This document shows, piece by piece, positions 1 through 10,389 of a stretch of 10,389 nt of DNA. The translations under genes and the position numbers were made by a program. The DNA is from a virus (Duplodnaviria; Heunggongvirae; Uroviricota; Caudoviricetes): the IMG/VR virus record IMGVR_UViG_2711768019_000005. The stretch is one strand, 5' to 3'. Every line of letters starts with the position of its first letter. Position 1 is the stretch's first letter. Below the pieces are notes generated by a model that was not told where the DNA came from, ran no database searches, and was given only the letters and a program-made list of their open reading frames with translations.

Positions 1-65
1 CTACGGCAGCAAGCCAGTAATGGGTTAAGTGATAACAGGTGTCTGGAAATATAGGGGCAAATCCA
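1..65 (+). mobile_element. IS2 right terminus (IRR), element body extends upstream of the window; bases 2-52 encode the InsD (orfB) C-terminus
   Basis: Bases 1-65 match the IS2 right end as I remember it and end in ...GGGGCAAATCCA at 65. Frame 2 reads RQQASNGLSDNRCLEI then TAG at 50-52, which matches the InsD C-terminus. The reading frame of the next gene starts abruptly at 66. Confidence 0.75.
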
Positions 66-173
66 GCGTTCATCAGCCCCCGCATTGCCGACAGGATCAC
101 AGACGGGGGGCGCAACTGGTTGTCGTTCAACTGGCCCAGCTACCGTTCTTGTATCAGAGGTGTGGCTGCATGA
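66..173 (+). pseudogene. 3' fragment of an upstream gene (probably the replication initiator or helicase loader) truncated by the IS2 insertion
   Basis: Open frame from the IS2 junction at 66 (…AFISPRIADRITDGGRNWLSFNWPSYRSCIRGVAA) ending at TGA 171-173, which overlaps the helicase ATG at 170 (ATGA coupling). No start codon or RBS of its own. Product identity is inferred from position only. Confidence 0.35.
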
Positions 174-1561
174 CAACACCAGTCTGGCGTAATGATGACC
201 TGGAAGGCGCTGTCATTGGCGCATTCTTTCTGCGTGGGGCAGATCATGAAGTGATGGATATTCTGATCACACTACCGGCGGACATTTTTTCTGTACGAGC
301 GTATCGGGATATCTACACAGGCATCTGCAGACAGGCCCGTGTTTCAGGAGTGATTGACCCCGTGCTGTTGTGTAATGAGATGCCGGAACTTGCCCCGGTG
401 ATTACTGATACCGGGCGTAAAACCTGGGTGAAGTCTTCACTGGAGCACTATGTTGCAGCGTTGCGGCGCAATGCCGCACTGCGCGATGCAGAAAAAACAC
501 TGAATGAGGCGCTGCAGAAATTACGTGATGCGCATACCTGTGAAGCAGCTGAAGATGCCCTGAAGGATGCGCAGAACATGATGGTCACACTGTCGACAGG
601 AAAGGGCGTCATTCAGCCGGTACATATTGATGATGTGCTTCCGGAAGTGGTTGAGCGTGTTGAATGCCGGAATCAGGGGCTGGAGAAATCCAGGACGTTG
701 ATGACCGGTATTGATGAACTGGACGCAAAAACAGGCGGTATGGAGCCCGGAGACCTGGTATTCATTGCCGCCCGTCCTTCGATGGGGAAAACCGAACTTG
801 CGCTGGACATCATCGACAAGGTGACTGAGCAGGGGCATGGTGTGCTTCTGTTCACCATGGAGATGGCGAACATCCAGATTGGTGAACGTATGGTGTCTGC
901 GGCTGGAGGGATGCCAGTATCACGCCTGAAATCTGTGGCTCACTTTGAAGATGAAGACTGGGCGCGTTTCTCACAAGGGGTGGGGCGGATGACCGGGCGC
1001 AATATCTGGATGGTGGACCAGGCGAACCTGACCATTGATGAGATATGCGCAACAACGAAACACCATCTGATTAAACATCCGGAAACGGCGCTGGTGGTGG
1101 TTGATTATCTCGGGCTGATAAAAACCCGAACCACGGGGCGTCATGACCTTGCCGTGGGTGAAATCTCAAAGGGGCTTAAAGGCCTGGCAAAATCCGGTGG
1201 TTTTCCGTTGATTGCGCTGAGCCAGCTCTCCCGCGGTGTGGAGTCCAGACCCAATAAACGTCCCATGAACTCAGACCTGAAAAATTCCGGAGAAATAGAG
1301 GCGGATGCAGACATCATTCTGATGCTTTACAGGGATGAAGTGTACAACCCGGATACACAGGCTACAGGCATAGCAGAAATTAATATCACGAAACAACGTA
1401 ACGGTTCTCTGGGGACGATTTACCGGCGTTTTTATAACGGACATTTTCTGCCTGTGGACCAGGAAAGCGCACAGGTTCTTTCCACCCCAATGCGGCAGCC
1501 CCAGCCGCGCAGATACAGCAATACACGTACCGACAGCAGTAAGATGGAGCGTTTCTTTTGA
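170..1561 (+). CDS. DnaB-family replicative DNA helicase (phage P22 gene 12-like)
   Basis: Track ORF 29..1561; the first in-frame ATG outside IS2 is at 170 (MTTPVWRNDDLEGAVIGAFF, a DnaB N-terminal-like segment). Walker A AARPSMGKT, Walker B VVVDYLGL, and a C-terminal SQLSRGVE…DADIILMLYRDEVYN motif are present. The track start at 29 is a GTG inside IS2. Confidence 0.9.
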   Translation: MTTPVWRNDDLEGAVIGAFFLRGADHEVMDILITLPADIFSVRAYRDIYTGICRQARVSGVIDPVLLCNEMPELAPVITDTGRKTWVKSSLEHYVAALRRNAALRDAEKTLNEALQKLRDAHTCEAAEDALKDAQNMMVTLSTGKGVIQPVHIDDVLPEVVERVECRNQGLEKSRTLMTGIDELDAKTGGMEPGDLVFIAARPSMGKTELALDIIDKVTEQGHGVLLFTMEMANIQIGERMVSAAGGMPVSRLKSVAHFEDEDWARFSQGVGRMTGRNIWMVDQANLTIDEICATTKHHLIKHPETALVVVDYLGLIKTRTTGRHDLAVGEISKGLKGLAKSGGFPLIALSQLSRGVESRPNKRPMNSDLKNSGEIEADADIILMLYRDEVYNPDTQATGIAEINITKQRNGSLGTIYRRFYNGHFLPVDQESAQVLSTPMRQPQPRRYSNTRTDSSKMERFF

Positions 1562-1572
1562 ACAACCAGACA

Positions 1573-1815
1573 ATGACTTTTACCTCTGAACAATTGCGTA
1601 AACACGCGCAGGAAATGTTGCGACAGGCGGAACAACTGGAAAAAACAGGTGTAACAAAAGATGCCATTCGTCGGGATATGGTGCCAGCGCTCAGGGAACT
1701 GATGCAGGCGAAACATCGCGCACAAAAAGCGGTGGATGAGCTCGTTGATTGTGTGGCAGAGCTGGAAACCAAAGTTGGAAAGTTTGAAAAAATGGTGCAG
1801 GAGGTGCTGCGCTGA
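1573..1815 (+). CDS. hypothetical small protein (nin-region, predicted coiled coil)
   Basis: Track ORF 1558..1815 starts with TTG; first ATG at 1573 (MTFTSEQLRK…). 80 aa, charged and helical-looking. Its stop TGA 1813-1815 overlaps the rusA ATG at 1815. No recognisable family. Confidence 0.5.
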   Translation: MTFTSEQLRKHAQEMLRQAEQLEKTGVTKDAIRRDMVPALRELMQAKHRAQKAVDELVDCVAELETKVGKFEKMVQEVLR

Positions 1816-2186
1816 TGCGCCATGAGTTTATTTTACCTTATCCGCCGACGGTGAATACTTACTGGCGACGTCGTGGCAGCACATATTTTGTATCAAAAGT
1901 TGGTGAGCGTTATCGCCGTGATGTGACGCTAATTGTTCGCCAGCAGCGGCTGAAATTAAACCTGTCCGGAAGGCTGGCGATAAAGATTATTGCAGAGCCA
2001 CCGGATAAGCGCCGTCGTGACCTGGACAATATCCTGAAAGCACCACTGGATGCGCTGACGCATGCCGGACTACTCATAGACGACGAGCAGTTTGATGAAA
2101 TCAATATTGTGCGCGGTCAGCTCGTTCCTGGTGGGCGACTGGGCGTGAAGATTTATGAAATCACAGGTGATAACGATGGCGCGTGA
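1815..2186 (+). CDS. rusA: RusA-family Holliday junction resolvase
   Basis: 123 aa with the RusA signature: [45 protein letters not shown], and [11 protein letters not shown], which parallels E. coli RusA (PDRRRRDLDN…DDAQV). Sits in the usual nin-region position upstream of Q. Confidence 0.9.
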
Positions 2187-2562
2187 TATTCAGCAGGTTA
2201 TGGAACGGTGGGGGGCTTGGGCTGCAAACACTCATGAAGATGTATCCTGGGCGTCGATCGCTGCTGGTTTTAAAGGGTTAATTCCGTCGAAAGTGAAATC
2301 ACGCCCTCAGTGTTCTGATGATGATGCAATGATAATTTGTGGCTGTATGGCCCGGTTGAACAAGAAAAATCAGGATTTGCACGATTTGCTGGTGGATTAT
2401 TACGTAGGTGGAATGACTTTTATGAGTCTGGCACGGAAACATGGGTGTTCGGATACCTGTATTGGCAAGCGCCTGCAGAAAGCGGAAGGGGTTATTGATG
2501 GCATGTTGATGATGCTTGATATCCGGCTGGAGATGGACAGATACGTAGAACGAATTATGTAG
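2176..2562 (+). CDS. late-gene antitermination protein Q (QuuD / phage 21-type Q family)
   Basis: Track ORF 2155..2562; the likely start is ATG 2176 ([18 protein letters not shown]…), overlapping the rusA stop as ATGGCGCGTGA. Cysteine motif [16 protein letters not shown] and resemblance to DLP12 QuuD as remembered. A late promoter follows 5 bp after the stop. The alternative start at 2155 is not excluded. Confidence 0.85.
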
Positions 2563-2566
2563 GTGC

Positions 2567-2596
2567 TTGACCAGACACATTGTCCGGGGCTATATT
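2567..2596 (+). promoter_or_regulatory. candidate late promoter PR' (with overlapping Q-utilisation site)
   Basis: TTGACC at 2567-2572, a 17-18 nt spacer, then CTATAT/TATATT at 2590-2596, starting 5 bp after the Q stop. This is the same placement as lambda PR'. An inverted repeat cgccag-N6-ctggcg at 2604-2621 lies in the initial transcribed region. Confidence 0.5.
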
Positions 2597-2657
2597 CCTC
2601 ACGCGCCAGCAAAATCTGGCGTCGGGATTGGAACCCCGGATAGAGACCGCGACAGAC

Positions 2658-2682
2658 ACACGCCGCGAGCGTGTTTTTTATT
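2658..2682 (+). terminator. rho-independent terminator, candidate tR' ending a short PR' leader RNA
   Basis: Stem acacgc (2658-2663), loop cgcga, stem gcgtgt (2669-2674), followed by TTTTTTATT. About 55-80 nt downstream of the predicted PR' start. Confidence 0.55.
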
Positions 2683-2871
2683 GTCGTATGCACGCGCACA
2701 TCTGAATTATGGTGGGGCGCATGGGGGAGCTGAAAAGCTCGCCGGTCGGTTTCCCGGTAGTTCCAACCCTGTGCGTCTCACCACCCGATGATTGGAACCT
2801 GACGGTGTTGACAGTTTCAGGTTTGCAGTTTACATTTCCCCGCGGTGCTCAAAACACCTCGAAAGCGGTAT

Positions 2872-2899
2872 CCACACCCGATAGCCATGTGGTTTTTTT
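2872..2899 (+). terminator. second terminator-like hairpin with T7 run
   Basis: ccaca (2872-2876) pairs with tgtgg (2888-2892) around an 11-nt loop, followed by TTTTTTT at 2893-2899. Weaker than the first hairpin. Confidence 0.3.
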
Positions 2900-3042
2900 G
2901 TGTCCAGAATTCTTGGTTTATGACCGGGTGTGCGGCTAATACAATACCAGCAATGGAAATACGCCCGCCGACTTTCGACGGTTTTGAGCGCCCGGTCACC
3001 CTCTCAAAAGGGGTAAATCAAAATATTCGAAAGGACATGTCT

Positions 3043-3606
3043 ATGAATCGCACGTCTATTGAAAAACTCCCGTCACTTACGCATAACCATCTTCCTGTCA
3101 TGACAACAGAGCTGCTGGCTGATTTGTACGGAACAGAGCGCCAGCGTTTGACAAACAATTTCAATCGAAACAAAGAACGGTTTATAGAAGGTAAACATTT
3201 TTTCCTGATAGAAGGTGATGCGTTACGAGAGTTGAAGAACGAAAACTCTTTAAGAGTTTCTGTGAAAATTGCCCGTAACGTTCGCTCCCTCATCCTCTGG
3301 ACAGAACGTGGCGCAGCCCGTCACGCCAAAATGCTCGAAACCGATCAGGCGTGGGAAGTGTTCGAAAAACTGGAAGACTGTTATTTCAACCAGAAACAGC
3401 CACCAGCGGCACAAAACACATCTATCGAAAATGATGGATGCGCATTACTGAGCCACTTCGATAAACACGGTCAGGTTGAGTTCACGGAAAAGGTACCCGC
3501 CGATGCGATGGTATGTACTCTGGAACGGTTTAAATTTTATCTGGAGCAACACGGGTGGATCGTTGCCCGTAAAGAGCAACTGGTGGAGCGGTTGATGCGG
3601 TTTTAA
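3043..3606 (+). CDS. ORF6N-domain protein (KilA-N/Bro-N-related putative DNA-binding or antirepressor-like protein)
   Basis: Track ORF 2845..3606 starts with GTG; AAGGA at 3031-3035 precedes ATG 3037/3043 (MNRTSIEKLPSLTHNHLPVMTTELLADLYGTERQRLTNNFNRNKERFIEGKHFFL…), which resembles the ORF6N domain. Flanked by terminators at 2872-2899 and 3683-3707. Confidence 0.7.
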   Translation: MNRTSIEKLPSLTHNHLPVMTTELLADLYGTERQRLTNNFNRNKERFIEGKHFFLIEGDALRELKNENSLRVSVKIARNVRSLILWTERGAARHAKMLETDQAWEVFEKLEDCYFNQKQPPAAQNTSIENDGCALLSHFDKHGQVEFTEKVPADAMVCTLERFKFYLEQHGWIVARKEQLVERLMRF

Positions 3607-3682
3607 AAATTTTTTCCGAAAACTTTACGATCGTAAAAAGTTGAATATCCTGTTAAGAGTGGTTACTACGCCACACAGCTTA

Positions 3683-3707
3683 AACCCGCCGATGAGCGGG
3701 TTTTTTT
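3683..3707 (+). terminator. rho-independent terminator after the ORF6N gene
   Basis: cccgc (3685-3689), loop cgatga, gcggg (3696-3700), then TTTTTTT at 3701-3707. Confidence 0.7.
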
Positions 3708-3757
3708 ATACCTGAAAAACGGCACAGGACGTTAAACGTGCTGGTGGTCAGATGAGT

Positions 3758-3786
3758 TTGCAGATGTGATGACATATGGTTATTAT
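3758..3786 (+). promoter_or_regulatory. candidate sigma70 promoter for the tRNA cluster
   Basis: TTGCAG at 3758-3763, 17-nt spacer, TATTAT at 3781-3786, about 10 nt upstream of the first tRNA 5' end at 3796. Confidence 0.35.
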
Positions 3787-3795
3787 TCTGCCTCC

Positions 3796-3872
3796 GGCCC
3801 TTTAGCTCAGTTGGTCAGAGCGAGCGACTCATAATCGCCAGGTCGCTGGTTCAAGTCCAGCAAGGGCCACCA
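3796..3872 (+). tRNA. tRNA with anticodon CAU, ileX/ileZ-like (tRNA-Ile2 lysidine type; would be read as Met by anticodon alone)
   Basis: Manual cloverleaf: acceptor GGCCCTT/AAGGGCC, D-arm AGCTCAGTTGG, anticodon loop CTCATAA, T-arm GGTTCAAGTCC, encoded CCA. Close to E. coli ileX as remembered. Confidence 0.85.
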
Positions 3873-3873
3873 A

Positions 3874-3950
3874 CCACCACTAGCTCATCCGGATAGAGCA
3901 TCAACCTTCTAAGTTGACGGTGCGAGGTTCGAGTCCTCGGTGGTGGGCCA
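3874..3950 (+). tRNA. tRNA-Arg (anticodon UCU; reads AGA/AGG)
   Basis: Acceptor CCACCAC/GTGGTGG, D-arm TAGCTCATCCGGATAGAGC, anticodon loop CTTCTAA, T-arm CGAGG-TTCGAGT-CCTCG, discriminator G plus CCA. Begins 1 nt after the preceding tRNA. Confidence 0.85.
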
Positions 3951-3952
3951 GC

Positions 3953-4028
<76 letters not shown>

Positions 4029-4031
4029 TAT

Positions 4032-4106
<75 letters not shown>

Positions 4107-4723
4107 GCGAGATTTGAGACGAAGGTTGTTATTTGCACTGACACAATATTGTGTGGGAATGTCTGACTCCTTACCATCTCCTGTTCTGTGATGTTGTTTT
4201 GTTGCAGTTCCAGTGCTCTTTTTTCAGCACCAGAATGGTGCATTGTCGGTCAGGTTACGTAGTGAACCTCTGGCAGGGGACTGATGATTCATCATTCTGG
4301 TGTTGTAAATATCTCTTCGGACAACTTACAAAATATTCTAAGCAAACCCCGGGAACACACTCTTAACTGCCTTGGCTGGCGGTTTTTTGTACAGTGCTCG
4401 GTATGTGTGAGCTGGAAATCAGATTTTGCATGGACTGGAATCATGCTGTTATTTAGGGGCGAAGAACTGGCTTTTTCTTCCGCCTTCTCACCAGTAACGA
4501 TTAGAAAAATAATGAAATGCCCCCCTCCGGGGAGGAGGACCGTAGAAAAAAGGACCCGCCAGCAAAAACATTGGGGATGAACAGCTTTCGCTACTCAGAT
4601 TGCTGGCGGGTAAAGTTCCTCATGAATTAAGAATGCTACGCGATCTTTTTTAATGGAAATGAAAATTATTGTCAATTAGTCGTGCGTGTTTTTTCATACA
4701 ATATTGGTAAAGGTGATTCAGGA

Positions 4724-5250
4724 CAGTCATCGGTTCGTCTGAGAATGACGTGCAACTGCGCACGCGACACCCGGAGACAACGGCTGACTAAGCTTACTCC
4801 CCATCCCCGGGCAATAAGGGCGCGTGCGCTATCCACTTTTTTGCCCGTCCATATTCAACGGCTTCTTTGAGGAGTTCATTTTCCATCGTTTTCTTGCCGA
4901 GCAGGCGCTGGAGTTCTTTAATCTGCTTCATGGCGGCAGCAAGTTCAGAGGCAGGAACAACCTGTTCTCCGGCGGCGACAGCAGTAAGACTTCCTTCCTG
5001 GTATTGCTTACGCCAGAGAAATAACTGGCTGGCTGCTACACCATGTTGCCGGGCAACGAGGGAGACCGTCATCCCCGGTTCAAAGCTCTGCTGAACAATT
5101 GCGATCTTTTCCTGTGTGGTACGCCGTCTGCGTTTCTCCGGCCCTAAGACATCAATCATCTGTACTCCAATGACTAGTCTAAAAACTAGTATTAAGACTA
5201 TCACTTATTTAAGTGATACTGGTTGTCTGGAGATTCAGGGGGCCAGTCTA
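4724..5250 (-). mobile_element. IS2, internally truncated copy: intact left end (IRL at 5250), complete insC, first ~70 bp of insD, missing the rest of insD and IRR
   Basis: The reverse complement of 5160-5250 reads TAGACTGGCCCCCTGAATCTCCAGACAACCAGTATCACTTAAATAAGTGATAGTC…, the IS2 left terminus. IS2 homology continues through insC into insD and stops at 4724, where the sequence diverges from IS2. Confidence 0.85.
4794..5159 (-). CDS. insC: IS2 transposase OrfA (InsC)
   Basis: Track ORF 4794..5204 (-); the true start is the ATG at 5157-5159 ([56 protein letters not shown]…), which matches IS2 InsC (121 aa) as remembered. Confidence 0.9.
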
Positions 5251-5252
5251 GT

Positions 5253-5273
5253 AAGGCTGCGAGAGGTGAATAA
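5253..5273 (+). pseudogene. remnant of holin gene (phage 21 S21 pinholin-like), last 6 codons only
   Basis: Directly after the IS2 IRL, aag gct gcg aga ggt gaa taa encodes KAARGE-stop, the same as the S21 C-terminus (…REDRRKAARGE) as remembered. Its TAA overlaps the endolysin ATG (TAATG), as expected at an S-R junction. The rest of the holin gene is absent. Confidence 0.45.
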
Positions 5274-5770
5274 TGTCGCCATCATTACGCAAGGCTGTTG
5301 CAGTTGCTATTGGTGGCGGGGCTGTTGCTATAGCATCTGTGTTAATCACTGGCCCAGGTGGTAACGATGGTCTGGAAGGTGTCAGCTACATACCATACAA
5401 AGATATCATTGGTGTATGGACTGTATGTCACGGACACACCGGAAAAGACATCATGCTCGGTAAAACGTATACCGAAGCAGAATGCAAAGCCCTCCTGAAT
5501 AAAGACCTTGCCACTGTCGCCAGACAAATTAACCCGTACATCAAAGTCGATATACCGGAAACAACGCGCGGCGCTCTTTACTCGTTCGTTTACAACGTGG
5601 GCGCTGGCAATTTCAGAACATCGACGCTTCTTCGCAAAATAAACCAGGGCTATATCAAAGGCGCATGTGACCAGCTATGTCGCTGGACATATGCTGGCGG
5701 TAAGCAATGGAAAGGGCTGATGACCCGTCGTGAGATTGAGCGTGAAGTCTGTTTGTGGGGGCAGCAATGA
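5273..5770 (+). CDS. SAR endolysin (phage 21 R21 / DLP12 RrrD-like lysozyme, T4 lysozyme fold)
   Basis: 165 aa. N-terminal Gly/Ala-rich signal-anchor-release segment [20 protein letters not shown], then lysozyme motifs [10 protein letters not shown]…[11 protein letters not shown]…[17 protein letters not shown] lies 6 nt upstream of ATG 5273. Confidence 0.9.
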
Positions 5771-6231
5771 GCAGAGTCACCGCGATTATCTCCGCTCTGG
5801 TTATCTGCATCATCGTCCGCCTGTCATGGGCTGTTAATCATTACCGTGATAACGCCATTACCTACAAAGAGCAGCGCGACAAAAACGCAAGAGAACTGAA
5901 GCTGGCGAACGCAACCATTACTGACATGCAGCAGAGACAGCGTGATGTTAATGCACTCGATGCTAAATACACGAAGGAGTTAGCTGATGCGAAAGCTGAA
6001 AATGAAACTCTGCGCGCTGATGTTGCCGCTGGTCGTCGTCGGTTGCACATCAAAGCAGTCTGTCAGTCAGTGCGTGAAGCCACCACCGCCTCCGGCGTGG
6101 ATAATGCAACCAGCCCCCGACTGGCAGACACCGCTGAACGGGATTATTTCACCCTCAGAGAGCGGCTGATGACGATGCAGATGCAACTGGAAGGGGCACA
6201 GGAGTATATCCGCACTCAGTGCATTAAGTAG
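5767..6231 (+). CDS. Rz: Rz i-spanin
   Basis: Track ORF begins at GTG 5755; ATG 5767 overlaps the endolysin stop (ATGA). N-terminal transmembrane segment [14 protein letters not shown] followed by a charged coiled-coil periplasmic domain, about 154 aa. Confidence 0.85.
5987..6169 (+). CDS. Rz1: Rz1 o-spanin lipoprotein, embedded in the +1 frame of Rz
   Basis: [24 protein letters not shown]…: signal peptide with lipobox (VVGC) and a proline-rich mature region ([19 protein letters not shown]). AAGGAG at 5974-5979 lies 7 nt before ATG 5987. Fully nested within Rz. Confidence 0.75.
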
Positions 6232-6273: not shown

Positions 6274-6624
6274 ATGCCATCACTAATCCCACGTGCCTGC
6301 CGTAAGCGTGGATGTGCAGGTACAACCACAGACAGTTCGGGTTACTGCGATAAACATCGCGGTGAAGGCTGGGTGCAGCACCAGCGCGGACTGAGCCGCC
6401 ACCAGCGTGGCTATGGCTCAAAATGGACGGTGATTCGTGCCCGTATTCTGAAGCGCGATAAAGGTCTGTGTCAGTTGTGTCTGCGTGTCGGTGTGGTGAG
6501 CGAGGCGAAAACCGTCGACCACATCATCCCGAAAGCGCATGGCGGAACAGACGCAGACAGCAACCTGCAGAGTCTGTGCTGGCCCTGCCATAAAGCGAAA
6601 ACAGCGCGCGAACGAATCCGGTGA
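6274..6624 (+). CDS. HNH endonuclease (terminase-associated)
   Basis: 116 aa with Cys-rich N-terminus and HNH motif DHIIPKAHGGTDADSNLQSLCWPCHKAKT. Located immediately upstream of the small terminase gene, as in HK97-like phages. Confidence 0.88.
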   Translation: MPSLIPRACRKRGCAGTTTDSSGYCDKHRGEGWVQHQRGLSRHQRGYGSKWTVIRARILKRDKGLCQLCLRVGVVSEAKTVDHIIPKAHGGTDADSNLQSLCWPCHKAKTARERIR

Positions 6625-6646
6625 TAATTATTCTCACTTGTAGGGA

Positions 6647-6707
6647 GGGGCGGGGCAAATCCCTGTGACCTGACGTCTTCCGGACTGCCCGCCCCATCGT
6701 TTTTTTA
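6647..6707 (+). terminator. GC-rich stem-loop with T-run; candidate terminator and/or cos-site region
   Basis: ggggcggg (6647-6654) pairs with cccgcccc (6688-6695) around a 33-nt loop, followed by atcgTTTTTTT (6700-6706). Lies in the HNH-to-small-terminase intergenic region, where the cos site sits in HK97-like phages. Confidence 0.4.
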
Positions 6708-6745
6708 TACCCGCGAAAAATGAAATTTAACCAGGAGTGCCGCAT

Positions 6746-7240
6746 ATGGCTGGAACGGCGGGGCGTTCCGGGCGTCGCCCCAAGCCAACGGCGCGCAAGG
6801 CGCTGGCCGGAAACCCCGGCAAGCGAGCCCTGAACAAAGATGAACCTGTTTTTACGCCCATCAAAGGTGTTGAGCCACCAGAGTGGTTCGCTGAAGAAGA
6901 TCTCCCTCTCGCCACGATCATGTGGCAACTGACAACCAAAGAACTCTGCGGTCAGGGCCTGCTGTGCGTGACTGACCTGGCGGTACTTGAGCGGTGGTGC
7001 GTGGCCTATGAGTTCTGGCGACGTGCCGTGAAAAATATTGCCATACAGGGCAACACCATCACCGGTGCAATGGGCGGCAGGGTCAAAAATCCGGAGCTGA
7101 CCGCCAAAAAAGAACAGGAGTCCGAGATGAGCAGCACGGGGGCAATGCTCGGACTCGACCCCAGCAGCCGCCAGCGTCTGATTGGCCTGGCGGGGCAGAA
7201 GAAAGCCACTAACCCGTTTCTGAAAATTATCGAATCATGA
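6746..7240 (+). CDS. terminase small subunit (P27 family)
   Basis: Track ORF starts at GTG 6737; ATG 6746 is preceded by AGGAG at 6733-6737. N-terminus [34 protein letters not shown] is typical of P27-family small terminases. Stop overlaps the large-subunit start. Confidence 0.85.
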
Positions 7241-8970
7241 GCCGGAAATCTTACCCCAACGTAAATGCTGCAAATCAGTATGCCCGGGATGTCGTGCGCG
7301 GAAAGATTGTTGCCTGCCAGTTTGTGATTCAGGCCTGCCAGCGCCATCTTGATGACCTGATGGCGGAAAAAAGTAAGTCGTTTCGTTACCGCTTCGACAA
7401 GGACCTGGCTGAACGGGCCGCGAAATTTATTCAGCTGTTGCCGCACACCAAGGGGGAGTGGGCATTCAAACGGATGCCCATCACGCTGGAGCCGTGGCAG
7501 CTATTTGTGATCTGCTGTGCGTTTGGCTGGGTCAATAAAGGCACCCGGTTGCGCCGCTTCCGGGAGGTGTACACCGAAATCCCCCGTAAGAACGGCAAAT
7601 CAGCAATCTCTGCCGGTGTTGCCCTGTATTGTTTTGCCTGTGATAACGAGTTTGGCGCGGAAGTGTATTCCGGTGCCACGACAGAGAAACAGGCGTGGGA
7701 AGTCTTTCGCCCGGCGCGACTGATGTGTAAACGCACACCCATGCTGACGGAAGCGTTCGGGATTGAGGTTAACGCCTCAAACATGAACCGTCCGGAGGAT
7801 GGCGCGCGGTTTGAACCGCTGATCGGCAACCCAGGTGATGGTTCATCACCCCACTGTGCCGTGGTTGATGAATATCACGAGCATGCCACCGATGCGCTTT
7901 ATACCACAATGCTTACCGGGATGGGGGCGCGACGTCAGCCACTGATGTGGGCCATCACCACCGCCGGGTACAACATTGAGGGGCCGTGCTACGACAAGCG
8001 GCGGGAAGTCATCGAGATGCTCAACGGCTCGGTGCCTAACGATGAACTGTTCGGGATCATCTATACCGTTGATGAAGGTGACGACTGGACCGGCCCGCAG
8101 GTGCTGGAAAAAGCCAATCCAAATATTGGCGTGTCGGTTTATCGCGAATTTTTGTTAAGTCAGCAGCAGCGTGCGAAAAATAACGCCCGTCTGGCAAACG
8201 TCTTTAAAACAAAACACCTCAATATCTGGGTGTCGGCGCGTTCGGCGTATTTCAACTTGGTGAGCTGGCAGAGCTGCGAGGATAAATCACTGACCCTTGA
8301 GCAGTTCGAGGGGCAGCCGTGCATTCTGGCCTTTGACCTGGCGCGTAAGCTGGATATGAACAGCATGGCGCGACTTTATACCCGCGAGATTGACGGTAAA
8401 ACGCATTACTACAGTGTGGCCCCGCGTTTCTGGGTACCGTATGACACGGTGTACAGCGTCGAGAAAAATGAAGATCGACGGACAGCCGAACGCTTTCAGA
8501 AATGGGTGGAAATGGGCGTTCTGACCGTTACCGATGGTGCGGAGGTGGATTATCGCTACATCCTCGAGGAGGCCAAAGCGGCGAACAAAATCAGCCCGGT
8601 CAGTGAGTCACCCATCGACCCCTTCGGGGCGACCGGGTTGTCACATGACCTTGCTGATGAAGACCTGAATCCCGTCACTATCGTCCAGAACTTCACCAAT
8701 ATGTCCGATCCGATGAAAGAGCTGGAAGCAGCGATTGAATCGGGACGTTTTCATCATGACGGCAATCCCATCATGACCTGGTGTATCGGCAACGTGGTCG
8801 GCAAAAACATGCCGGGTAACGATGATGTGGTGAAACCCGTCAAAGAGCAGGCGGAAAACAAAATCGATGGTGCAGTTGCGCTGATTATGGCGGTTGGCAG
8901 AGCCATGCTGTACGAGAAAGAAGACACGCTGTCTGACCACATTGAGTCCTACGGGATCCGCTCGCTTTAA
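7237..8970 (+). CDS. terminase large subunit
   Basis: 577 aa. ATPase Walker A-like GxxxxGKS (IPRKNGKS), Walker B-like AVVDEYHE, and a C-terminal nuclease region. ATG 7237 overlaps the small-terminase stop (ATGA). Confidence 0.9.
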
Positions 8971-8981
8971 CTGAGGTAATT

Positions 8982-9164
8982 ATGATCATGCTGATTCTCG
9001 CGCCTCTGGTGGGCGTGCTGGGTGCGCTTTTGCTGGCGTATGGTGCCTGGCTGATTTATCCCCCGGCGGGTTTTGTTGTTGCCGGGGCGCTGTGCCTGTT
9101 CTGGTCGTGGCTGGTGGCGCGATATCTCGACCGTACACGGCAGTCTGTCGGCGGAGGTAAATAG
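8982..9164 (+). CDS. small hydrophobic membrane protein, hypothetical
   Basis: 60 aa with two predicted transmembrane stretches ([37 protein letters not shown]). Sits between terminase and portal; GAGGT at 8974-8978 precedes ATG 8982/8988. Overlaps the portal start. Confidence 0.5.
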
Positions 9165-10320
9165 TGTTCTTTTCGGGATTATTTCAACGAAAAAGCGATG
9201 TGCCGGTGACCACGCCAGCAGAACTGCTGATGCTATCGGGCTGTCATACGACACCTATACCGGAAAGCGGATCAGTAGCCAGCGGGCCATGCGCCTGACG
9301 GCGGTCTATTCTTGCGTCAGGGTGCTGGCAGAGTCTGTTGGTATGCTGCCCTGCAGTCTCTACAAAATCAGCGGTACCCTGAAAACACGGGCGGTGGATG
9401 AACGACTGCATAAGTTGGTTTCGGCAAAACCTAATGGCTACATGACACCGCAGGAATTCTGGGAGCTGGTTATTGTCTGCCTGTGTCTACGGGGGAATTT
9501 TTACGCCTACAAGGTAAAGGCACTGGGAGAAGTGGTGGAGCTTCTTCCGATAGATCCGGGCTGTGTGGAACCGAAGCTGAACAGCCAGTGGCAGCCGGTT
9601 TATCAGGTGACGTTTCCGGATGGTTCCGTGGATGTGTTGACCCAGAATGAAATCTGGCATGTGCGCACCCTGACGCTGGATGGACTTGTCGGGCTGAATC
9701 CCATTGCGTATGCGCGTGAGGCCATTTCACTGGCAGCGGCAACCGAGGAGCACGGTGCCAGGTTGTTTAGTAATGGTGCGGTGACATCCGGTGTGTTGCG
9801 TACGGAACAAAAGCTCACGCCGGATGCTTACGAGCGTCTGAAGAAAGATTTTGAGGAGTGTCACACGGGGCTTGGCAATGCTCACCGCCCGATGATTCTG
9901 GAAATGGGGCTGGACTGGAAGTCGATGGCGCTGAACGCCGAGGACAGTCAGTTCCTGGAAACCCGCAAGTTTCAGCTGGAAGAAATCTGTCGTCTGTTCC
10001 GGGTGCCGTTGCACATGGTGCAGAACACCGATCGCGCCACCTTCAACAATATCGAAGAGCTGGGGCTGGGATTTATCAACTATTCACTGGTGCCGTATCT
10101 GACCCGCATCGAACAGCGGATCAACACCGGACTGGTACGAAAAAGTAAGCAGGGCGTTTATTACGCCAAATTTAACGCCGGGGCGTTACTGCGCGGGGAT
10201 ATGAAGTCCCGTTTTGAAGCCTACGCCACCGGGATCAACTGGGGAATTTACTCTTCCAATGACTGCCGCGACCTGGAAGATATGAATCCGCGTCCCGGTG
10301 GTGTAATGCCGATCAGTTAA
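9164..10320 (+). CDS. phage portal protein (HK97 family), apparently frameshifted near the 5' end
   Basis: Portal motifs in frame 1 (AMRLTAVYSCVRVLAESVGMLP…NPIAYAREAISLAAATEEHGARLF…). The only good start is GTG 9164 (GGAGG 6 nt upstream), in frame 2, giving [12 protein letters not shown]… which stops at 9296-9298. Frame 1 has no ATG before 9289, and the track start TTG 9073 overlaps the upstream ORF by 90 bp with no RBS. Confidence 0.8.
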
Positions 10321-10354
10321 GGATCAGTTGACCGATCCAGTGGCTGTGTAAGAA

Positions 10355-10387
10355 TCCGGAAACGCTCACTTGTTTCCGGATTTTTTT
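10355..10387 (+). terminator. rho-independent terminator immediately downstream of the portal ORF
   Basis: tccggaaac (10355-10363), 8-nt loop, gtttccgga (10372-10380), then TTTTTTT (10381-10387). Confidence 0.55.
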
Positions 10388-10389
10388 AT

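Follow-up and report, generated by a model that had tools for sequence, protein, structure and literature searches.

The closest named phage to the locus described here is the Stx2e phage phiP27 (NC_003356.1), in which the loader gene L18 and the helicase gene L19 lie in the same order and with the same overlap as at our locus. To the left of L18, phiP27 carries about 11.4 kb comprising attL, integrase, excisionase, regulators, antirepressors and the HTH protein L17. In its late region the cos site (21806-21815) lies between the HNH endonuclease gene and the small terminase gene. In phiP27 and other Stx phages stx is carried between the tRNA genes and the lysis cassette, and the tRNA genes of phiP27 at this position are those for Ile and Arg only. 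The loaders DnaC of Escherichia coli and P of lambda presumably have the same role as the L18-type protein, that of an accessory to a DnaB-type helicase, encoded beside it or acting on it; an intact homologue of the L18-type protein shares the IstB/DnaA-type AAA+ domain of DnaC. Lambda P is not an AAA+ protein. At our locus the loader is destroyed.

The insertion sequence IS2 is equally well described. IS2A of E. coli K-12 MG1655 (NC_000913.3, 381260-382590) is 1331 bp long and has the same terminal repeats and the same arrangement of orfA and orfB as the IS2 found here. Ordinary IS2 insertions show a 5-bp target duplication, whereas the copy beside our loader remnant has none. IS2 and IS4 are among the five IS that have expanded in all Shigella, disrupting genes; Shigella and enteroinvasive E. 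coli (EIEC) share IS2 variants of their own, and the route by which Shigella genomes are recognised to decay is deletion and rearrangement between homologous IS copies (Hawkey et al. 2020, PMC7373316). The decay at our locus is of this same kind, with nothing different in kind. The text and supplementary files of that study, so far as searched, contain no occurrence of 'prophage' or 'ypjA' and no mention of the joint described below, and a search of the supplementary files for 53G coordinate prefixes near the joints (30654, 30703 and 30716) returned only an unrelated reaction identifier.

All parts of the locus are therefore of kinds already known: IS2, a phiP27-type loader/helicase module and IS-driven Shigella decay. 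Their combination is a joint in which nt 1-1364 of the chromosomal gene ypjA, a single IS2 and the loader gene from codon 258 follow one another, and this joint is fixed in S. sonnei. To its right stands what is left of a dead phiP27-like prophage, a stump whose left edge is this joint and whose right edge is a cut at IS4.

A phiP27-like prophage stump bounded by IS elements

The stretch of DNA analysed (10,389 nucleotides; hereafter the window) is a whole short-read draft contig with a 65-base IS2 overhang on its left and an 86-base IS4 overhang on its right. Between these lie genes for a helicase, an 85-aa ORF, RusA, Q, an ORF6N-domain protein, four tRNAs, lysis proteins, HNH, TerS, TerL and a truncated portal. 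Synteny with phiP27 covers the replication and packaging modules: nucleotide identity is 94.4% over 66-1819, 84% over 6274-6895 and 82% over 7237-10301, so that the downstream HNH-TerS-TerL-portal block is 82-84% identical. The window differs from phiP27 in that 35 loader codons are left and everything after about portal codon 338 is missing; the 11.4-kb left arm is likewise missing beside the S. sonnei IS2. Moreover, the Q gene, the tRNA set and the lysis genes belong to other lambdoid types, unlike those of phiP27. No alignment was found between the window and phiP27 17502-18737 (stxA2e/stxB2e), and stx does not lie between the tRNA genes and the lysis cassette as it does in the Stx phages.

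Several smaller features of the stump were also noted. Downstream of Q, four tRNA genes stand in tandem (3796-4106; CAT, Arg-TCT, Thr-TGT and Gly-TCC), against the two of phiP27. The CAT tRNA is called Met by ARAGORN and tRNA-Ile in the annotation of an E. coli homologue; it is probably a lysidine tRNA of the ileZ type. Between the tRNA genes and the holin gene, bases 4107-4722 contain a 98-aa ORF without a Pfam match (4284-4580) and a terminator-like hairpin, and no stx. A 60-aa ORF at 5987-6169, nested in another frame of the Rz gene (5767-6231), corresponds to the ORF called Rz1 (PF06085) in S. sonnei L010 (15547-15729), and the two genes are the usual Rz/Rz1 nested pair. At 6274-7240 the HNH endonuclease gene stands directly upstream of a P27-family small terminase gene, as in phiP27.

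The right edge is formed by the left end of IS4 (10304-10389, plus strand), 86 bases of a contig-end repeat that truncates the portal gene after about 338-343 of about 413 codons. In long assemblies this IS4 is 1426 bp, has no target duplication and is followed by one of two alternative right neighbours, the bamE-recN side or the raiA-pheA-tyrA side (L018, 11016-13779; L023, 11016-12441), and this suggests that S. sonnei is polymorphic for an inversion mediated by IS4. Several strains carry, within this IS4, an inserted IS2 flanked by a perfect GTGTC duplication. The interval from bamE to ypjA in K-12 holds yfjF, ratA, smpB and the cryptic prophage CP4-57; the IS-bounded 10.2-kb stump takes its place in most of the S. 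sonnei assemblies. The stump can neither excise nor initiate replication, package DNA or build a particle.

The IS2 end, the loader remnant and the helicase

The first 65 bases of the window are the right terminus of IS2 (1-65, plus strand; nt 1267-1331 of the element), and the contig begins inside the repeat since a short-read assembler is unable to cross a multi-copy element. The last 17 codons of orfB (InsD) and its stop occupy bases 1-54, and the right inverted repeat (IRR) ends at base 65 with the letters …GGGGCAAATCCA. Translation of bases 1-54 gives LRQQASNGLSDNRCLEI followed by the stop, which is the orfB (InsD) C-terminus of this IS2 as found at full length in S. sonnei. Bases 1-65 align without gaps and in plus orientation to nt 1267-1331 of K-12 IS2A (59/65 identical, E 4e-21), and many IS2 copies in complete E. 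coli genomes, annotated as IS3-family transposase, are identical to them at all 65 positions (E 3e-25). Both the terminal repeat and the transposase C-terminus thus match IS2. Over its whole length, as seen in other assemblies, this left IS2 is 97.6% identical to IS2A, six of the mismatches falling within the final 65 bases; to copies from EIEC chromosomes and large plasmids its identity is 99.9%. Judged by its sequence, it is a Shigella/EIEC-type variant, which fits the account of Hawkey et al. (PMC7373316).

Immediately beyond IS2 lies the 3′ remnant of a helicase-loader gene (66-173, plus strand), comprising codons 258-292 and the stop of a gene for a 292-aa DnaC/IstB-like AAA+ protein of the phiP27 L18 type. 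The frame from base 66 reads AFISPRIADRITDGGRNWLSFNWPSYRSCIRGVAA and then stops. It shares 34 of 35 residues with positions 258-292 of the 'ATP-binding protein' that E. coli RMDEC465 encodes intact at 292 aa, and 32 of 35 with the C-terminus of phiP27 L18, annotated as 'DnaC-like helicase loader' (E 2e-21). Codon 258 begins precisely at base 66, the IS2 cut falling on a codon boundary. The intact RMDEC465 homologue matches Pfam IstB_IS21 (E 1.4e-15), its IstB_IS21/Bac_DnaA AAA+ domain spanning residues 112-269, whereas a Pfam search with the 35-aa remnant gave no match. Nearly all of the ATPase domain is encoded upstream of the break and has been lost, so that the remnant is a gene fragment and no working loader. 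The name helicase loader is itself putative, being taken only from annotation and domain content.

The loader remnant and the gene that follows it share an ATGA at 170-173, in which the loader stop TGA occupies 171-173 and the helicase ATG begins at 170; a Shine-Dalgarno-like GAGG stands before it at 157-160. The helicase gene (170-1561, plus strand) is intact and encodes a 463-aa DnaB-type replicative helicase of the phiP27 L19 type (Pfam DnaB_C, E 7.8e-73; 97% amino-acid identity to L19). The overlap of a loader gene with the start of a DnaB-type helicase gene is found in the same arrangement in RMDEC465 and phiP27.

These results agree in large part with an earlier note on this DNA, made from the window alone, which had read bases 1-65 as the IS2 right terminus with the InsD C-terminus and 66-173 as the C-terminus of an upstream replication gene overlapping the helicase at an ATGA. 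It had named two outcomes that would undo this reading, bases 1-65 failing to align to IS2 and the 66-173 frame lacking homology to replication proteins; both the alignment and the homology were found, and the two identifications are borne out. Its description of the frame as one without a start codon is correct for 66-173 itself, but a GTG at 39 within the IS2 end opens a mechanical 44-aa chimeric ORF, so that the frame is not strictly start-less.

The exact helicase protein carries the NCBI name Shigella sonnei or Shigella, the window's exact lysozyme likewise being named S. sonnei, and occurs in 3506 blocks of the assembly collection. Very many S. sonnei assemblies have the helicase reading frame unbroken and unchanged despite the loss of the loader, the origin region and the promoters. 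The gene has the same orientation as IS2, its own GAGG ribosome-binding site and no predicted terminator between it and the element; a scan of 1-600 found no sigma-70-like promoter. The orphan helicase might conceivably have been retained by the host and be transcribed by read-through from the adjacent IS2, and would then be a domesticated gene and not debris. We regard this as very improbable: all that speaks for it is that the frame has stayed open, in a clone that is young. In one S. sonnei assembly (JBEAAD010000003.1; L021, 1-1400) the helicase is split into 101 aa and 387 aa by a further IS3-family element with an rve/rve_2 transposase; decay of the prophage stump is ongoing.

The ypjA side of IS2 and the origin of the joint

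The far side of the left IS2 was read from nine multi-megabase S. sonnei chromosome assemblies, taken with 10 kb of upstream flank and 99.9% identical to window 1-4722. In all nine the element, most of which lies outside the view of the window, measures the full 1331 bp and has both orfA (121 aa) and the overlapping orfB (301 aa) open. The copy is complete and, as its reading frames suggest, apparently functional. The side of its left inverted repeat (IRL) is occupied in 9/9 by nt 1-1364 of the chromosomal autotransporter gene ypjA/EhaD, 99.6% identical to E. coli, and ypjA is preceded by pinH, ypjCB, ygaQ and glaH as in E. coli. The string across the ypjA-IRL junction is identical in all nine. 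Neither the 5′ 771 nt of the loader gene nor the prophage left arm adjoins IS2 in these assemblies.

Apart from the window, 13 distinct assemblies have the joint on the other side, between IRR and the loader; 12 of them are multi-megabase chromosome assemblies and the other is a draft contig. This joint was found only in S. sonnei assemblies. A search of one-genome-per-species representatives gave no match to the IS2-loader joint, and in E. coli complete genomes none of the matches listed crosses base 66, the best coverage being 96%.

The flanks of the element are unrelated. The five bases beside IRR are GCGTT (66-70), which would be the expected target site had IS2 inserted here and which stand once in the intact gene (…TTGTGG/GCGTTCATC…), whereas the five bases outside IRL are GTTGC. 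There is consequently no 5-bp duplication. Control copies have perfect 5-bp repeats: ATTAC/ATTAC for K-12 IS2A and GTGTC/GTGTC for a second S. sonnei copy, which sits in IS4 a few kb downstream. The missing duplication identifies a novel joint of two unrelated sequences, an IS2-bounded deletion or rearrangement, and not a simple insertion; it speaks against simple insertion and not against the identity of the element as IS2. Absence of a target duplication is a cheap and reliable sign by which an IS-marked deletion or rearrangement can be told from an insertion. The proposal that IS2 had cut into the replication gene therefore stands as far as the position is concerned, the cut lying exactly at the IS2 end, but not as a simple insertion. 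The upstream extension that the earlier note had suggested showed IS2 to be full length, but in none of the nine assemblies did it show the 5′ part of the loader gene or a 5-bp duplication on the other side. Its general conclusion of IS-mediated decay or rearrangement holds.

An insertion of IS2 into ypjA is also known from outside S. sonnei. In E. coli VG48B2 (NZ_CP128584.1; L025, 3272-4601) IS2 has independently entered the gene by simple insertion, 151 bp downstream of the point at which it is broken in S. sonnei, and both parts of the gene are still there. ypjA is a recurrent IS2 target.

We favour, with moderate confidence, homologous recombination between two IS2 copies as the source of the joint; the model and the order of its events are inferred. 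IS2 would have inserted at GCGTT between loader codons 257 and 258, and a second IS2 would have stood in the nearby ypjA in the same orientation. Homologous recombination of the two copies would then have left one IS2 with one flank from each site, removing distal ypjA together with the prophage left arm (attL, integrase, regulators, the L17-type gene and 88% of the loader). Three considerations favour this course of events. Transposition of IS2 is copy-and-paste by way of a minicircle (PMC3299598), which by itself deletes no adjacent DNA and leaves the donor intact; recombination between homologous IS copies is the recognised source of deletions and rearrangements in Shigella (PMC7373316); and ypjA is, from VG48B2, demonstrably a target of IS2.

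The two sites before recombination were sought directly, and in the collections searched no genome had IS2 between two copies of GCGTT in the loader gene or between two copies of GTTGC at this site of ypjA. The precursor joint of the loader 5′ part through GCGTT to IRL had no match in GTDB representatives or metagenomes, and the precursor joint of IRR to GTTGC and the ypjA 3′ part had none in metagenomes. A search for the ypjA-IRL joint in E. coli complete genomes gave as its sole match a different insertion site 151 bp away. All 80 IMG/VR loci examined encode the full 292-aa loader, and none has IS2 ends. Homologous protein clusters were searched for a separate N-terminal loader piece of about 257-263 aa; the partial matches (231-252 aa) end elsewhere and look like contig-end partials, and clustering at 90% identity could hide such a fragment.

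Two further points bear on which copies could have taken part. The left IS2 is not a visible hybrid of two variants, the same variant being found at 99.9% over its full length in EIEC; hence its sequence records no recombination. The downstream IS2 inside IS4 was rejected as the recombination partner, having a perfect GTGTC duplication of its own. The event may also have been an inversion or translocation in place of a deletion. The way in which the stump is oriented between ypjA and bamE does not fit a simple ssrA-integrated prophage and hints at a more complex history.

A possible but less probable origin involves a single IS2, in ypjA or in the loader gene, whose transposase would have attacked the other site within the same molecule and deleted or inverted the intervening DNA, for instance through an (IS2)2 tandem dimer or an IR-IR junction. 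(IS2)2 intermediates are known from older literature. Such an event would likewise leave a single full-length IS2 whose flanks are unrelated and lack a 5-bp repeat, and with both reading frames open the copy could be active. For circle-forming IS, dimers and IR-IR junctions are described as reacting with targets close by (PMC9333248). Against this, the standard minicircle copy-and-paste pathway leaves the donor site intact (PMC3299598); nothing in the sequence tells the one-copy event from homologous recombination.

A simple IS2 insertion, with the loader 5′ part and the 5-bp duplication lying just to the left of the window, would account for a break exactly at the IS2 end and on a codon boundary, and the window cannot show the other side; given ypjA beyond IS2 and the lack of a duplication in nine long assemblies, it is highly unlikely. 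Least credible is that bases 1-65 are a chimeric contig end never joined to the loader remnant, an artefact that might be suspected of a draft contig made from short reads, which has a repeat overhang at either end and an N within, but one that would have to account for the identical IRR-GCGTT joint in 13 other distinct assemblies.

The second IS2 and the lysis region

IS2 sequence recurs at 4724-5250 on the minus strand, running from nt 527 to nt 1 of the element, with the IRL end at 5250 and orfA (InsC) complete at 4794-5159. It is identical to K-12 IS2A at 525 of 527 positions and differs from the left IS2 at 6 of 527, the two being different variants. The IRL abuts the last 23 nt of a class II holin gene (5251-5273, plus strand), as comparison of assemblies shows. 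Its other end meets unique phage DNA at 4723, which is a scaffold join: the window equals CWWE01000144.1, from the Shigella sonnei draft assembly GCA_001248445.1 (L015), except at base 4723, which is A in the window and N in the public record. The sub-contig to the left ends a few bases into a terminator-like hairpin that precedes the holin gene. Where IS2 seems truncated there is thus a one-N scaffold gap and not contiguous sequence; the truncation is unproven, and the gap may hide the 251 bp described next. More generally, a biological truncation may be read by mistake into contig-end repeat tails and into single bases that stand for gaps, such as the N at 4723 shown as A.

The 14 distinct long S. 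sonnei assemblies that were examined all have, as does one draft contig, 251 bp (the hairpin and most of the holin gene) in place of 4723-5250 and no IS2; in all 14 the holin gene is intact. The joint of IS2 IRL to GTAAG (5250/5251) was found only in short draft contigs. Six contigs have the variant lysozyme gene, and the three that were read (L015, L016 and L017) all carry the joint; L016 and L017 begin 86 and 75 bases inside IS2. Provisionally, two IS2 lesions flanking the replication-Q-tRNA segment belong to a minor sublineage only and not to S. sonnei generally. The earlier note had described a second, truncated IS2 here and two IS2 lesions in one prophage. The oppositely oriented IS2 sequence is real, but its truncation is unproven given the N at 4723, and the pairing of lesions is weakened by the absence of the right joint from the 14 long assemblies.

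Other ways of relating the two IS2 sequences were also considered. Bases 1-65 and 4724-5250 are not halves of one inverted IS2: the flanks do not match (GCGTT as against CTTAC, the reverse complement of GTAAG), the phage genes between them are in natural order and the left copy is full length. As for a composite transposon, in which two IS2 copies would mobilise the helicase-Q-tRNA segment, the left copy is complete only in other assemblies, and the right one is either incomplete or interrupted by the gap at 4723, and is absent from the 14 long assemblies. The inverted arrangement would put IRL at both outer ends, and IRL is described as donor-inactive (PMC3299598).

To the right of the gap the window differs from the long assemblies at five single nucleotides, 5304, 5317, 5651, 5678 and 5818, all within the lysozyme and Rz genes beside IS2, and L017 has four of the five. 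Either the lysis cassette is a repeat common to two prophages or the prophages have recombined, and the right IS2 lesion may belong to this stump or to a second prophage whose lysis cassette is nearly identical. In L016, a second S. sonnei draft contig (CXGJ01000175.1, 1-7898), the sequence from the IS2 IRL through the holin 3′ end and lysozyme is 100% identical to window 5165-5934 and then passes into a different late module, with genes for a VTT-domain protein, Terminase_3, portal_3 and a Mu F-like protein.
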